DNA of 5,651 nt from a virus (taxonomy: Duplodnaviria; Heunggongvirae; Uroviricota; Caudoviricetes): the IMG/VR virus record IMGVR_UViG_2671180430_000009, positions 1 through 5,651 of that record; one strand, given 5' to 3'. A program made the position numbers and the translations under genes. The notes below the pieces were generated by a model. The model searched no databases, was not told where the DNA came from, and saw only the letters and a list, made by a program, of their open reading frames with translations. Positions 1,867 through 5,651 of the stretch are shown piece after piece (positions within the stretch are counted from its first letter, which is position 1; each line of letters begins with the position of its first letter).

Positions 1867-1941
1867 CGTAAAAACTGCTTCAATTCTTGTACGCTTCGCA
1901 AAGCTGTACCGCGAGGCGAATAGCAGACATGGACATTTGAA

Positions 1942-1968
1942 AGAGCCCGCTTTATGCGGGTTTTTTTA
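1942..1968 (+). terminator. Rho-independent terminator downstream of the Q-like gene (candidate tR')
   Basis: GC stem CCCGC (1946-1950) / GCGGG (1956-1960) with 5-nt loop TTTAT, followed by T7 run 1961-1967. Confidence 0.75.
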
Positions 1969-2017
1969 TACCTGAAAAACGGCACAGGACGTTAAACGTG
2001 CTGGTGGTCAGATGAGT

Positions 2018-2046
2018 TTGCAGATGTGATGACATATGGTTATTAT
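2018..2046 (+). promoter_or_regulatory. Candidate sigma70 promoter for the tRNA array
   Basis: -35 TTGCAG (2018-2023), 17-bp spacer, -10 TATTAT (2041-2046); predicted start about 2053, 3 nt before the first tRNA. Motif match only. Confidence 0.35.
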
Positions 2047-2055
2047 TCTGCCTCC

Positions 2056-2132
2056 GGCCCTTTAGCTCAGTTGGTCAGAGCGAGCGACTCATAATCGCCA
2101 GGTCGCTGGTTCAAGTCCAGCAAGGGCCACCA
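2056..2132 (+). tRNA. ileZ: tRNA-Ile2 (anticodon CAU, lysidine type; decodes AUA), phage-borne
   Basis: Cloverleaf folded by hand: acceptor GGCCCTT/AAGGGCC, D-arm GCTC..GAGC, anticodon loop CTCATAA (CAT), T-arm GCTGG-TTCAAGT-CCAGC, discriminator A, encoded CCA. Anticodon and T arms closely match E. coli ileX as I recall it, rather than elongator tRNA-Met. Confidence 0.85.
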
Positions 2133-2133
2133 A

Positions 2134-2210
2134 CCACCACTAGCTCATCCGGATAGAGCATCAACCTTCTAAGTTGACGGTGCGAGGTTCGAGTCCTCGG
2201 TGGTGGGCCA
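2134..2210 (+). tRNA. argN: tRNA-Arg (anticodon UCU; decodes AGA/AGG), phage-borne
   Basis: Perfect 7-bp acceptor stem CCACCAC/GTGGTGG (C1-G72), D-arm GCTC..GAGC, anticodon stem TCAAC/GTTGA with loop CTTCTAA (TCT), T-arm CGAGG-TTCGAGT-CCTCG, discriminator G, encoded CCA. Same anticodon loop as E. coli argU. The argN name is by analogy with Stx phages. Confidence 0.8.
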
Positions 2211-2212
2211 GC

Positions 2213-2288
<76 letters not shown>

Positions 2289-2291
2289 TAT

Positions 2292-2366
<75 letters not shown>

Positions 2367-2371
2367 GTCAG

Positions 2372-2418
2372 AGTCTTTCAGTCTGCGATGATGGGAAATC
2401 CCGGAGTGACTGAAAGAC
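2372..2418 (+). repeat. Long hairpin directly after tRNA-Gly (11-bp perfect stem, 24-nt loop)
   Basis: GTCTTTCAGTC (2373-2383) pairs perfectly with GACTGAAAGAC (2408-2418). Begins 6 nt after the tRNA-Gly CCA and is followed by GTTTAAGTT. Possible 3' processing or termination structure for the tRNA transcript. Confidence 0.5.
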
Positions 2419-2425
2419 GTTTAAG

Positions 2426-2498
2426 TTATGAATGATCGCCTTTTTTTGCAAAATTGCTGTGCAGAAATACTAACCTTCGGGCGTGCGATCATTCATAA
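2426..2498 (+). repeat. 14-bp perfect inverted repeat with 45-bp spacer
   Basis: TTATGAATGATCGC (2426-2439) and its exact reverse complement GCGATCATTCATAA (2485-2498). Spacer contains a T7 run and the palindrome TTTTGCAAAA (2444-2453). Confidence 0.5.
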
Positions 2499-2548
2499 GC
2501 ACTCTGCTTTTATTCCGATTAACTGTGGGTGGTTTGTTGGATAGAGTG

Positions 2549-3692
2549 TGAGGTGTACTGGCAATAGCGGACACTACCATTTGTTCTTTTTTTAAGCAGC
2601 CATCTGATGATATTTTTCCCTGAAGGCTGCCGGGGAGATATTCCCCAGACGAGAGTGACGACGCTGACGATTGTAGAAAATCTCAATGTATTCCCGTATT
2701 ACTGAGATGGCTTCATCCCGGTTATTAAAACGATAGTGGCTCAGGCTCTCATTTTTCAGCGTTCCCCAGAAGCTTTCCATCGGAGCGTTGTCGTAACAGT
2801 TACCTTTACGCGACATTGATGTTTTCAGACCAGACTGCTCCTGTATGACCCGGTAATCGTATGCGCAGTACTGTGAACCTCGATCAGAGTGGTGGATTAG
2901 CCCGGCAGGTGGGCGCTGGCTCCTGAGCGCCATAAACAGGGCTTTACCTGTCAGCTCTTTTGTCATGCGCTCTCCCATGGCGTAGCCGACAATTTCGCAC
3001 GTATAAACATCTTTGATGCCAGCGAGGTACAACCATCCCTCCTGTGTGGCAACATACGTCAGGTCCGCCACCCAGACCTGATTTGGTGCTGTAGGAGCGA
3101 ACGTCTGGTTCAGCAGATTTGGCGCAACTGGCAGATTGTGGTTCGAGTTCGTAGTCGCTCTGAACTTGCGTTTCTGCTTACAGCGTAGCCTTAGCTCCTT
3201 ACGAAGACGTGCCAGTCGGTCACGACCAACGATGATGCCATTCTCTGCCAGCTCCGTCTGGAGCCGCCGGGTTCCATATGTTTCGCGAGTGCGGATATGT
3301 GCCACCTTAATCTCCAGTTTTAGCCGCTCATCACTTTGTTTTCTGTCTGAGGGTTCATGCTGTACCCAGTTGTAATAACCGCTCCTGGATACACCAAATA
3401 CCTGACACATCGCTTCAATGGGAAATTGTTGTCGCCATTGTTCGATTAACGCGTATTTTTCAGCGACTCCTGTGCAAAATACGCTGTTGCTTTTTTTAAT
3501 ATATCTCGCTCAAGGCGAGCTTCATTTAACGCCTTACGCAGTTGCAGAATTTCAGATTCCAGTTCAGCCACCGTGCGGGAACCAGGAGTACCGAGCCCTT
3601 TTCTGGCGGCGGTAACCCATTGTCCTAAAGTGCCTTCAGGAAGAGATAATCGGGAAGCGCCTTCACTGATCGAAAGTTGATTTTCAAACACA
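2549..3692 (-). mobile_element. IS600-like IS3-family element, apparently truncated or rearranged at its left (orfA) end
   Basis: + strand begins TGAGGTGTACTGG at 2549, 43 bp outside the orfB stop. orfA and orfB lie in -1 frame relation with an A7G slippery run (3491-3497 on +). Canonical orfA homology seems to stop near 3690 (see finding). The 3692 boundary is an estimate; if the element is intact its end lies near 3789-3812. Confidence 0.7.
2592..3410 (-). CDS. IS3-family transposase OrfB (IS600-like), 272 aa from first Met
   Basis: 272-aa product with the IS3-family integrase/DDE-type core (e.g. ...WVADLTYV..., ...HHSDRGSQY..., ...KGNCYDNAPMESFWGTLK...). Frame is -1 relative to orfA, so it is probably expressed as an OrfAB fusion by frameshifting. 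Confidence 0.9.
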   Translation of the reverse strand: MCQVFGVSRSGYYNWVQHEPSDRKQSDERLKLEIKVAHIRTRETYGTRRLQTELAENGIIVGRDRLARLRKELRLRCKQKRKFRATTNSNHNLPVAPNLLNQTFAPTAPNQVWVADLTYVATQEGWLYLAGIKDVYTCEIVGYAMGERMTKELTGKALFMALRSQRPPAGLIHHSDRGSQYCAYDYRVIQEQSGLKTSMSRKGNCYDNAPMESFWGTLKNESLSHYRFNNRDEAISVIREYIEIFYNRQRRHSRLGNISPAAFREKYHQMAA

Positions 3693-3790
3693 ATATTGTG
3701 TGGGAATGTCTGACTCCTTACCATCTCCTGTTCTGTGATGTTGTTTTGTTGCAGTTCCAGTGCTCTTTTTTCAGCACCAGAATGGTGCAT
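3446..3790 (-). CDS. IS600-like OrfA (HTH transposition regulator) with atypical or replaced N-terminus
   Basis: Residues from ENQLSISEGASRLSLPEGTLGQWV to the C-terminus match IS600 OrfA as recalled, including the leucine-zipper-like tail and the slippery run near the 3' end. The first 35 codons of this ORF (MHHSGAEKRAL...VRSQTFPHNIVF) lack the conserved helix (..EFKAEAV..) seen in IS3-family OrfA proteins. Possible starts are ATG 3790 or ATG 3724, neither with a well-spaced SD. Confidence 0.6.
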   Translation of the reverse strand: MHHSGAEKRALELQQNNITEQEMVRSQTFPHNIVFENQLSISEGASRLSLPEGTLGQWVTAARKGLGTPGSRTVAELESEILQLRKALNEARLERDILKKATAYFAQESLKNTR

Positions 3791-4113
3791 TGTCGGTCAG
3801 GTTACGTAGTGAACCTCTGGCAGGGGACTGATGATTCATCATTCTGGTGTTGTAAATATCTCTTCGGACAACTTACAAAATATTCTAAGCAAACCCCGGG
3901 AACACACTCTTAACTGCCTTGGCTGGCGGTTTTTTGTACAGCGCTCGGTATGTGTGAGCTGGAAATCAGATTTTGCATGGACTGGAATCATGCTGTTATT
4001 TAGGGGCGAAGAACTGGCTTTTTCTTCCGCCTTCTCACCAGTAACGATTAGAAAAATAATGAAATGCCCCCCTCCGGGGAGGAGGACCGTAGAAAAAAGG
4101 ACCCGCCAGCAAA
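3790..4113 (+). repeat. Copy A of a 324-bp direct repeat (noncoding)
   Basis: 3790-4113 matches 4946-5269 with only 2 mismatches (3833 G vs A, 3836 T vs G) and no indels. The preceding CA dinucleotide is also shared. No credible ORF inside. Confidence 0.9.
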
Positions 4114-4873
<760 letters not shown>

Positions 4874-4945
4874 TGGAGCACCTGTGTTGTTCTGAGGTGA
4901 GCATATCACCTCTGTTCAGGTGGCCAAATTCAGTGTGCCACTTCA

Positions 4946-5269
4946 TTGTCGGTCAGGTTACGTAGTGAACCTCTGGCAGGGGACTGATAATGCATCATTC
5001 TGGTGTTGTAAATATCTCTTCGGACAACTTACAAAATATTCTAAGCAAACCCCGGGAACACACTCTTAACTGCCTTGGCTGGCGGTTTTTTGTACAGCGC
5101 TCGGTATGTGTGAGCTGGAAATCAGATTTTGCATGGACTGGAATCATGCTGTTATTTAGGGGCGAAGAACTGGCTTTTTCTTCCGCCTTCTCACCAGTAA
5201 CGATTAGAAAAATAATGAAATGCCCCCCTCCGGGGAGGAGGACCGTAGAAAAAAGGACCCGCCAGCAAA
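4946..5269 (+). repeat. Copy B of the 324-bp direct repeat, abutting the IS911 IRL tip
   Basis: See copy A. Starts immediately after the terminal CA of IS911 IRL (4944-4945); identity ends at 5269 (GCCAGCAAA), after which the sequence continues toward the holin gene. Confidence 0.9.
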
Positions 5270-5423
5270 AACATTGGGGATGAACAGCTTTCGCTACTCA
5301 GATTGCTGGCGGGTAAAGTTCCTCATGAATTAAGAATGCTACGCGATCTTTTTTAATGGAAATGAAAATTATTGTCAATTAGTCGTGCGTGTTTTTTCAT
5401 ACAATATTGGTAAAGGTGATTCA

Positions 5424-5455
5424 GGCCATCAGAGTTTTGCTGATGGCCTTTTTTC
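5424..5455 (+). terminator. Rho-independent terminator upstream of the holin gene
   Basis: Stem GGCCATCAG (5424-5432) / CTGATGGCC (5440-5448), 7-nt loop, then T6 run 5449-5454. Confidence 0.8.
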
Positions 5456-5489
5456 TTTCCGATAGCACAGGTCTGTCGGGGGGCGGGAT

Positions 5490-5651
5490 ATGTATCAGAT
5501 GGAAAAAATATCAACAGGCATTGCCTACGGCACCTCCGCCGGCAGTGCCGGCTACTGGTTTTTGCAGTGGTTGGATCAGGTCAGTCCATCACAGTGGGCT
5601 GCGATTGGTGTGCTGGGAAGTCTGCTTCTGGGGCTTCTGACTTATCTGACG
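5490..5651 (+). CDS. S: Class II (S21/pinholin-type) holin with dual-start motif, 5' partial (runs off window end)
   Basis: Translation from 5490: [54 protein letters not shown]..., near-identical over this span to phage 21 S holin as recalled. Two in-frame Met codons (5490 and 5499) separated by two codons give the antiholin/holin dual start. No stop before the window end, which is why it is absent from the supplied ORF track. Confidence 0.85.

Follow-up and report, generated by a model that had tools for sequence, protein, structure and literature searches.

The spacer between tRNA-Gly and an insertion sequence in a lambda-like prophage holds a structured RNA element, which we read as a modular plus-strand RNA at positions 2373–2549 of the window, the 5,651-nt stretch of DNA analysed here. 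It belongs to the late-operon leader of Enterobacterales lambda-like phages and prophages, where it lies 3′ of tRNA genes, and it comprises three adjacent stem-loops, H1, H2 and H3. Comparison of the relatives makes it highly probable that the stems of all three represent plus-strand RNA structure under selection. As to function, the interpretation that we prefer, with a probability of roughly 0.4, is that the element would form the structured 3′ end of a phage tRNA operon transcript, a trailer set free as a stable non-coding RNA. The Q-to-lysis stretch of lambda-like prophages, the site of Shiga toxin and of several regulatory small RNAs, thereby gains a well-supported and apparently undescribed structured RNA, found in roughly a tenth of complete E. 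coli genomes. It is linked to phage tRNA genes, and one of its hairpins, that with the near-invariant strand, recurs alone in the late leaders of other phages. As a stable released RNA, the element would provide a phage example of a tRNA-trailer regulator; a cis-acting role would make it a new point at which late genes or lysis are controlled.

In the window, insertion sequences interrupt the late-regulatory region of a lambda-like prophage, and the following features are present:

Ending at 1866: Q-type open reading frame, from the list of open reading frames.
1943–1968, plus strand: tR′-type intrinsic terminator downstream of Q, GAGCCCGC-UUUAU-GCGGGU followed by U7.
2017–2046, plus strand: candidate sigma-70-type promoter of the phage tRNA operon, TTTGCA-18-TATTAT.
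2056–2366, plus strand: four-tRNA array, Met/Ile2(CAT), Arg(TCT), Thr(TGT) and Gly(TCC), called by ARAGORN and scoring 56–70 bits as Rfam tRNA.
2373–2418, plus strand: H1, an 11-bp outer stem with inner GC/GU and UGGG/CCCG pairs.
2426–2498, plus strand: H2, a 14-bp basal stem bearing two small arms.
2444–2461, plus strand: near-invariant motif TTTTGCAAAATTGCTGTG in the apical arm of H2, from the columns of alignment A1.
2499–2549, plus strand: H3, an 8-bp outer stem, a 7-nt one-sided internal loop and a 6+4-bp upper stem.
2527–2540, plus strand: near-invariant 3′ strand of the H3 upper stem, GGGTGGTTTGTTGG, from alignment A3.
2549–3790 (right end approximate), minus strand: IS600 of the IS3 family, with left end TGAGGTGTACTGG, from the RefSeq annotation.
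5490–5651, plus strand: start of a class II holin gene, the first late gene downstream, homologous to a 71-aa holin.

The tR′ hairpin folds at −18.2 kcal/mol (z = −6.5) and is predicted to end the short PR′ leader RNA; it overlaps a weak IsrK-like Rfam match at 1893–1966 (19.9 bits, E 0.52) and was missed by our consensus terminator scan. Between the candidate promoter and the first tRNA lies a GC-rich discriminator, TCTGCCTCC. More than 30 distinct relatives carry TTGCA(N)-17/18-TAT(T/C)AT plus a GC-rich stretch upstream of the first tRNA, which is the layout of stable-RNA promoters, and the sequence at 2017–2046 would be expected to act as one. The first tRNA of the array is called tRNA-Ile by PGAP in one relative (L003). 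At the other end, ARAGORN places the last base of tRNA-Gly(TCC) at 2366, so that H1 begins after six unpaired bases; the tRNAs end there, and neither ARAGORN nor Rfam (RF00005) finds anything tRNA-like within 2367–2548.

An earlier note on this DNA had pointed to two long perfect hairpins in the spacer. Both are real, and a third, at 2499–2549, had been missed. With the repeat finder, the arms of H1 fall at 2373–2383 and 2408–2418 (GTCTTTCAGTC and GACTGAAAGAC; 11 nt, 100% complementary, 24 nt apart), as described for the first of the two, an 11-bp stem with a 24-nt loop 6 nt past tRNA-Gly. Those of H2 fall at 2426–2439 and 2485–2498 (TTATGAATGATCGC and GCGATCATTCATAA; 14 nt, 100% complementary, 45 nt apart), and the 45-nt interior does contain the T7 run (2441–2447) and the palindrome (2444–2453, TTTTGCAAAA) that had been ascribed to it. 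The first small arm of H2 lies within this region at 2443–2467, where UUUUUGCA pairs with UGCAGAAA around a 9-nt loop, and the second is CC-UUCG-GG at about 2474–2481. H3 is closed by the outer strands GCACUCU...AGAGUG, and its upper stem contains a U-U mismatch and ends in a 6-nt loop. A separate observation is a resemblance between the H1 interior, GCGATGATGGGnnnnCCCGGAG, and part of the adjacent tRNA-Gly, namely its variable loop and T arm, GCTGATGATGCGGGTTCGATTCCCGCTG; an origin of H1 in a recent att duplication of the tRNA-Gly 3′ end was considered and rejected, as the similarity is too weak and partial.

Repeats of this length are improbable by chance, as had been supposed. Counting perfect inverted repeats with a loop of at most 60 nt in 3000 dinucleotide-preserving shuffles of the spacer (2367–2548, 182 nt), the longest repeat averages 6.3 bp; one of 11 bp arises in 0.1% of the shuffles and one of 14 bp in none of the 3000. 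Folding on both strands, a check that the earlier note had proposed, gives for 2367–2548 −61.4 kcal/mol for the plus strand (z = −4.1, with none of 200 shuffles as good) and −46.5 kcal/mol for the minus strand (z = −3.9).

Stronger evidence for the structure comes from its conservation among relatives, for which we used three alignments: A1, with 36 distinct H2+H3 sequences; A2, with 25 sequences for H1; and A3, with 28 H3 sequences, including stand-alone copies. RNAalifold on A1 yields an irregular hairpin for H3 and, for H2, a long basal stem that bears two small arms. In this alignment 97.5% of stem cells pair, as opposed to 35–48% when the partner is slid by one to three columns, and 11 pairs show double-sided changes (82 cells, many of these double changes following a single split between two clades), with a covariation score that none of 500 shuffles matches. 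The H2 basal helix is paired in 97.6% of cells and has compensatory changes in five pairs, and the H3 outer stem exists in at least five different paired versions among relatives. In A3, 94.2% of cells pair as opposed to 37–49% in the slid control; six pairs carry double changes, one of which (14/56) occurs as four pair types. Support for H1 is weaker than that for H2 and H3, with 95.8% of A2 cells paired (39–48% slid) and double changes in two pairs. Compensatory substitutions separate the E. coli type from HK639 in all three stems. Importantly, G-U/U-G cells number 179 and A-C/C-A cells 14, an excess that identifies the plus strand, which is sense for both the tRNAs and the late operon, as the folded molecule. 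Among the roles that the earlier note had listed, that of a structured RNA is thus supported, its pairing being conserved across homologous prophage regions.

The conservation also extends beyond pairing. The 3′ strand of the H3 upper stem at 2527–2540 is the same in 24 of the 28 A3 copies, with single substitutions in L110, L104, L154 and L139, while the remaining differences in this stem are wobble-compatible changes of the 5′ side that leave each 3′-strand U facing A or G and each G facing U or C. Since one strand is near-invariant and its partner varies only in ways compatible with pairing, we interpret this as sequence-specific recognition of one strand beyond the helix. In H2, the 18-mer at 2444–2461 is exact in all Enterobacterales matches of a search with one genome per species and in the true IMG/VR homologues. 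The element is non-coding, because changes in T-run length break a 38-codon open reading frame from 2430, which in the HK639 clade also meets an early stop. A 44-aa minus-strand "hypothetical protein" in ON470583 overlaps H3 and the linker that follows it in relatives, and is probably an artefact.

Intact relatives provide the reference point for the architecture of the locus. Their order is Q, tR′, the conserved promoter, four tRNAs, the element, an intrinsic terminator and the holin gene. In E. coli Ecol_244 and phage vB_EcoS-689R5, taken here as examples, the 182 nt are followed by a U-rich linker of ~25 nt, a small intrinsic terminator and, ~60 nt further on, the holin gene. This intact form folds as H1-H2-H3, the U-rich linker as a single strand and the terminator hairpin, at −78.7 kcal/mol (z = −5.6). 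From tRNA-Gly to the holin gene, intact relatives have about 290 bp with no gene in between; no cargo gene has therefore been lost from the lineage, contrary to what the earlier note had suggested. Across 78 distinct loci, most place the element directly after the tRNA-Gly of a Met/Ile2-X-Thr-Gly array, and tRNA remnants adjoin it in HK639, L006, L097, L104 and L122. Three unrelated versions of linker and terminator occur, each with the terminator 25–40 nt 3′ of H3. The gene downstream is a holin of at least four families (the 71-aa homologue of the window's holin in 67 loci) and the gene upstream a Q protein of several families; the element therefore moves as a mosaic module of its own, keeping its late-leader place and orientation. 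In HK639, the late leader consists of tR′, tRNA-Asn, a tRNA-Gly remnant, the element, a terminator, STnc100 (52.6 bits), more terminators and then the lysis genes, and is therefore a string of RNA modules.

The 182-nt spacer is present in 536 of 5426 complete E. coli genomes, always on the chromosome and mostly at 95–99% identity. The element is also found in prophages of Shigella, Enterobacter, Citrobacter, Yokenella and Phytobacter (with one genome per species, the matches are in Enterobacter hormaechei, Citrobacter sedlakii, Yokenella regensburgei and Phytobacter ursingii), in six phage records, among them HK639 at 75% identity, and in more than 100 IMG/VR viral contigs. The Stx-phage lead of the earlier note fails: no more than six phage records carry the element, and none of them is named or annotated as an Stx phage. 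H1 is an optional module, as it is absent from seven loci (L015, L033, L054, L062, L064, L076 and L077), and in copies without it H2 starts 1–7 nt from the tRNA. A few contigs keep H1 and H2 with other sequence where H3 is expected. Conversely, R1, a covariance model of H2+H3, together with a targeted pattern scan, finds H3 alone in 11 viral contigs, carrying the near-invariant strand GGGUGGUUUGUUGG in late-operon leaders. Five of these loci have it 15–20 nt downstream of the PR′-tR′ module; in L256 it stands immediately upstream of a terminator and the holin gene, in L249 behind a Q-like gene and in L195 after a spanin gene. The stand-alone copies mostly have no terminator of their own, and within the phage collection stand-alone H3 and its PR′ module are found in no isolate phage beyond the composite carriers.

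We envision that a trailer of the tRNA operon would arise as follows. In the lysogen, the stable-RNA-type promoter upstream of the first tRNA would transcribe the tRNAs together with the element, and in intact copies the intrinsic terminator 25–40 nt past H3 would halt transcription ahead of the lethal lysis genes. RNase P and RNase E process tRNA transcripts, and such maturation would free the trailer as a 3′ external transcribed spacer of about 215–250 nt. Three tight hairpins plus the terminator hairpin would make this RNA long-lived, and it could then contact a host protein or RNA through the near-invariant GGGUGGUUUGUUGG of H3 and UUUUUGCAAAAUUGCUGUG of H2. During lytic growth, Q-modified polymerase would instead read through the element as part of the late-mRNA leader. 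A close analogy is 3′ETS-leuZ, an sRNA sponge formed by the 3′ external transcribed spacer of tRNAs in the E. coli glyW-cysT-leuZ operon. Like it, the element immediately follows the final tRNA of an operon with its own candidate promoter and, in intact form, ends in the intrinsic terminator of that operon (absent from the window copy), and release by tRNA processing would apply to both. Unlike it, the element is ~4–5 times longer, folds into three long hairpins and is phage-borne. The mode of action could likewise be by analogy that of the 3′ETS-leuZ sponge and of the small RNAs of the "moron" site. The name "3′ESTleuZ" appears in EPEC tables. Some findings count against a released trailer: most of its conserved bases are paired in stems instead of forming an open seed, the single-stranded linker differs from clade to clade, a complementary target was sought nearby without success, and a few copies have a protein-coding gene upstream instead of a tRNA. 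Stand-alone H3, located after tR′ or before the first late gene, also suits a cis-acting leader element better than a trailer.

Such a cis-acting element of the late-mRNA leader is the main rival to the released trailer, and we regard it as possible, if doubtful. It could be a protective 5′ structure left once RNase P/E has excised the tRNA, an RNase III-type site, or an insulator of the lysis genes against read-through. Irrespective of which Q or holin family flanks it, the element always runs in late sense, with Q/tR′ on one side and the lysis cassette on the other; its leading hairpin begins close to the tRNA 3′ end (at 6 nt in the window and 1–7 nt without H1), so that processing would leave it 5′-terminal; stand-alone H3 follows tR′ at 15–20 nt in five loci and precedes terminator and holin in L256; and the modules occur separately, as self-contained hairpins should. 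The 5′-terminal stabiliser hairpins of the ompA type and the RNase III processing hairpins of T7 and lambda offer precedents, also being irregular hairpins of 50–70 nt with an internal loop in long phage transcripts, and after tRNA excision the hairpin would likewise come to lie a few bases from the new 5′ end. However, the element keeps a near-invariant 14-nt strand, which a plain stabiliser does not need; neither type of hairpin is known to keep an invariant strand of this length. In most copies a terminator also stands between the element and the lysis genes, and three unrelated terminators right after H3 suggest selection for a discrete transcript end. A different cis role, and an improbable one, is that of a put-like RNA which would bind the transcribing polymerase or Nus factors and act in late processivity or in modulation of the following terminator. 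Like the put RNAs of HK022 and HK639, the element consists of adjacent stem-loops (H2 and H3 with at most one unpaired base between them) in a nascent phage transcript, upstream of terminators and with sequence-specific positions, its single invariant strand would fit a protein contact, and HK639, which has put RNA in its early operons, carries it. Yet the element lies in the late and not the early operon, where Q already supplies antitermination and where transcription running from a constitutive tRNA promoter into the lysis genes would be lethal to lysogens. Moreover, R1 scores 143.9 bits on the late-leader copy of HK639 and has no match on its annotated putL-like RNA, the fold of which is unrelated, and we reject identity with that RNA. 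A boxA-like or boxC-like character of H3 was discarded as well: the likeness is partial in two clades and absent from the stand-alone family, where the boxA-like 5′ side is not kept. More broadly, H3 with its near-invariant strand might be a widespread, unrecognised recognition element of lambdoid late transcripts, bound by polymerase or a host factor and setting the processivity, processing or timing of late (lysis) genes, with the H1-H2-H3 trailer as a derived form that couples this control to the tRNA operon; we consider this rather unlikely as it stands. Candidates for the host factor would be a Nus factor, an RNase or the ribosome.

Two further explanations sit poorly with the conservation of the element. 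Decayed tRNA debris or the functionless remnant of an integration site (att) might be suspected from the tRNA-like interior of H1 and from the tRNA remnants beside the element in five loci, but this is very unlikely: compensatory changes among sequences of 75–98% identity point to continuing selection on pairing, neither ARAGORN nor Rfam recognises a tRNA-like fold in H2 or H3, and one strand is kept invariant across diverged phages. Least credible of all, in our view, is that the repeats act as DNA-level operator half-sites, Fur-like or for a cargo-gene regulator, or that the hairpins are terminators of the tRNA operon. In favour of these ideas, both of which the earlier note had raised, the palindromes are perfect, their arms contain AATGAT / ATCATT, and they stand at the end of a tRNA operon. 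The arms, however, covary rather than keep their sequence (TTATGAATGATCGC in E. coli, TTTTGAATGGGCGC in HK639, both complementary to their partners), the opposite of what is expected for a protein half-site, and the Fur-box look is lost in the HK639-type clade. The half-sites would moreover be 45 bp apart, the asymmetry of G-U over A-C cells is unexpected for duplex DNA, and intact relatives have no regulated cargo gene. As for termination, neither stem is followed by a U tract, and no site was called in 1800–2700 by the scan, which also missed tR′; the loop of H1 spans 24 nt and the interior of H2 45 nt, and the real terminator of intact relatives lies beyond H3. Of the proposed "terminator or processing signal", only a role in processing, or as a trailer, thus fits the anatomy. 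Our reading of the window needs neither a cargo gene nor an operator, only an element whose local copy is cut by IS600.

The element apparently represents an undescribed structured RNA. Rfam gives no match within 2367–2548 at E up to 1, Rfam 15 on an intact E. coli copy (L003, 2990–3295) reaches only 11–15 bits (E 2.6–8.9), and the HK639 element returns only weak, terminator-driven hits to istR (26 bits) and isrB (22.5 bits) at its 3′ end. The family search that the earlier note had advised thus matched no described family on the window, the intact E. coli copy or HK639. In the full-text literature searched we found no mention of either invariant motif, in DNA or RNA form, and in that on prophage sRNAs, HK639 and the lambdoid tRNA/Q/holin region no description of the element.

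The niche between Q and holin is nevertheless a known small-RNA hotspot. AgvB/AsxR anti-sRNAs sit "3′ of PR′ in the moron insertion site" (Tree et al. 2014, PMC4104026), and PasA/C/D and STnc100 lie between Q and holin (bioRxiv 10.64898/2026.05.13.724894). AgvB/AsxR (RF02702, RF02703), PasA/PasC/PasD and STnc100 (RF02076) thus have in common with the element their place between Q/PR′ and the lysis cassette. Neither AgvB/AsxR nor STnc100 matches it in Rfam at E up to 10, and the search was able to detect STnc100, since RF02076 is matched in the neighbouring region of HK639, 45 nt past the element's terminator. Identity with the Pas sRNAs was rejected on the partial published sequences of PasA and PasD, which do not match. 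Compared with the 51–84-nt anti-sRNAs, the element is tRNA-linked and far more structured. The PR′-tR′ leader RNAs (lambda 6S, IsrK and StxS, the last described in PMC7547250) are also non-coding and occupy the same late leader, with a window copy at about 1880–1968, but they end at tR′, whereas the element lies past both tR′ and the tRNAs.

Other candidates were considered and set aside. A common GGTCTGCGAT and a G/U-rich strand prompted a comparison with GcvB; the best local match is these 10 nt, and homology or mimicry was rejected as within chance, since 15% of shuffles (HK639 copy) and 41% (E. coli copy) score as high. A search for a complementary CCAACAAACCACC target on the late-sense strand of 867 kb of oriented loci gave seven scattered two-mismatch matches, none of them conserved. 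A riboswitch with the downstream terminator as its platform was also dismissed: no alternative pairing is kept across the three terminator versions, and such a switch would make no biological sense behind a constitutive tRNA promoter and ahead of lysis genes.

In the window itself the element is truncated. The earlier note had placed the insertion of an IS600-like element at 2549; IS600 does start there (RefSeq annotates the match as "IS3-like element IS600 family transposase"), with open reading frames at 2592–3410 and 3446–3790 on the minus strand and more IS material beyond. It is not a simple insertion, however. The sequence to the right of the IS elements differs from the continuation in relatives, so that IS600 marks a rearrangement; for 4948–5489, to the right of the IS elements, a search of the phage collection showed no origin. 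Neither the linker nor the terminator that should follow H3 is present anywhere in the window; the rearrangement took both and therefore probably crippled this copy, which is probably non-functional as a unit. H3 is almost complete: IS600 enters one base short of its last pair, and the first T of the insertion sequence replaces a C, so that this pair is now G2499-U2549. The tRNA-Gly and spacer up to this point (2292–2548) recur without any difference in Shigella flexneri SFBU1023 and in a record listed as E. coli ECMA0423.

The late leader that carries the element has the appearance of several RNA genes in a row. In phage HK639, a match to STnc100 (RF02076; L002 3254-3459) lies just 3' of the element's terminator and scores 52.6 bits, above the gathering score, and STnc100-like sequence (CACCGGGAGGCACCCGGCACC) is also present 5' of tRNAs in the loci L097, L155, L251 and L255. 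Directly 5' of the first phage tRNA, at window 2017-2055, a sigma-70-type promoter with a GC-rich discriminator is predicted and is kept in more than 30 relatives; this suggests PR'/Q-independent expression of the phage tRNA operon. Two further features precede this promoter:

Window 1880-1968: short PR' leader RNA, ending at tR'
Window 2000-2007, plus strand: Chi site (GCTGGTGG), in the interval that separates tR' from the tRNA promoter

The PR' leader is the local counterpart of the lambda 6S and StxS-type RNAs; its two Rfam matches, IsrK at 19.9 bits and the Trp leader at 23.1 bits, are weak and sub-threshold. A Chi site also occupies the equivalent place in an intact E. coli relative (gcgctggtggagg, L003 around 2618-2625).

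Within the tRNA array, the second slot (window 2134-2210) differs in anticodon among otherwise similar prophages: it holds Arg-TCT in the window, and Lys-TTT, Phe-AAA/GAA, Leu-TAA, a TTA anticodon or an undetermined one in relatives. The tRNA with the TTA anticodon was labelled 'Stop' by ARAGORN. This variation could reflect anticodon switching, or could include a suppressor tRNA.

The surroundings of the element also vary. In three contigs, L041 (about 7100-7230, minus strand), L103 and L214, a 38-codon hydrophobic ORF (MGVWKIALILTASLIAGVFIYSDVISDLIVDANFLHLL) takes the place of the tRNAs directly upstream of H2, the element's second hairpin; it may encode a toxin-like peptide or some other small protein of the membrane type. 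One annotated reading frame overlaps the third hairpin, H3, itself:

L001 (record ON470583.1) 3103-3234, minus strand: 44-aa 'hypothetical protein', overlapping H3 and the linker that follows it

Because RNA covariation is found there, this protein is probably an annotation artefact. Where H3 stands alone after the spanin gene in L195, the intergenic stretch 3' of it, running to a methylase gene (8060-8330), contains more GC-rich, hairpin-like stretches (e.g., ccagcagggggaggcacccccgcc) and may harbour additional structured RNA.

Insertion-sequence material makes up further parts of the window. A 300-bp direct repeat, 99% identical between its copies at 3788-4087 and 4944-5243, encloses a second, IS911-like remnant with two ORFs:

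Window 4035-4544, minus strand: IS911-like remnant ORF
Window 4571-4909, minus strand: IS911-like remnant ORF

Searches of the phage collection yielded no source for the repeat or for 5244-5489 upstream of the holin gene. At the opposite end, window positions ~1-90 appear to resemble an IS1 terminus.
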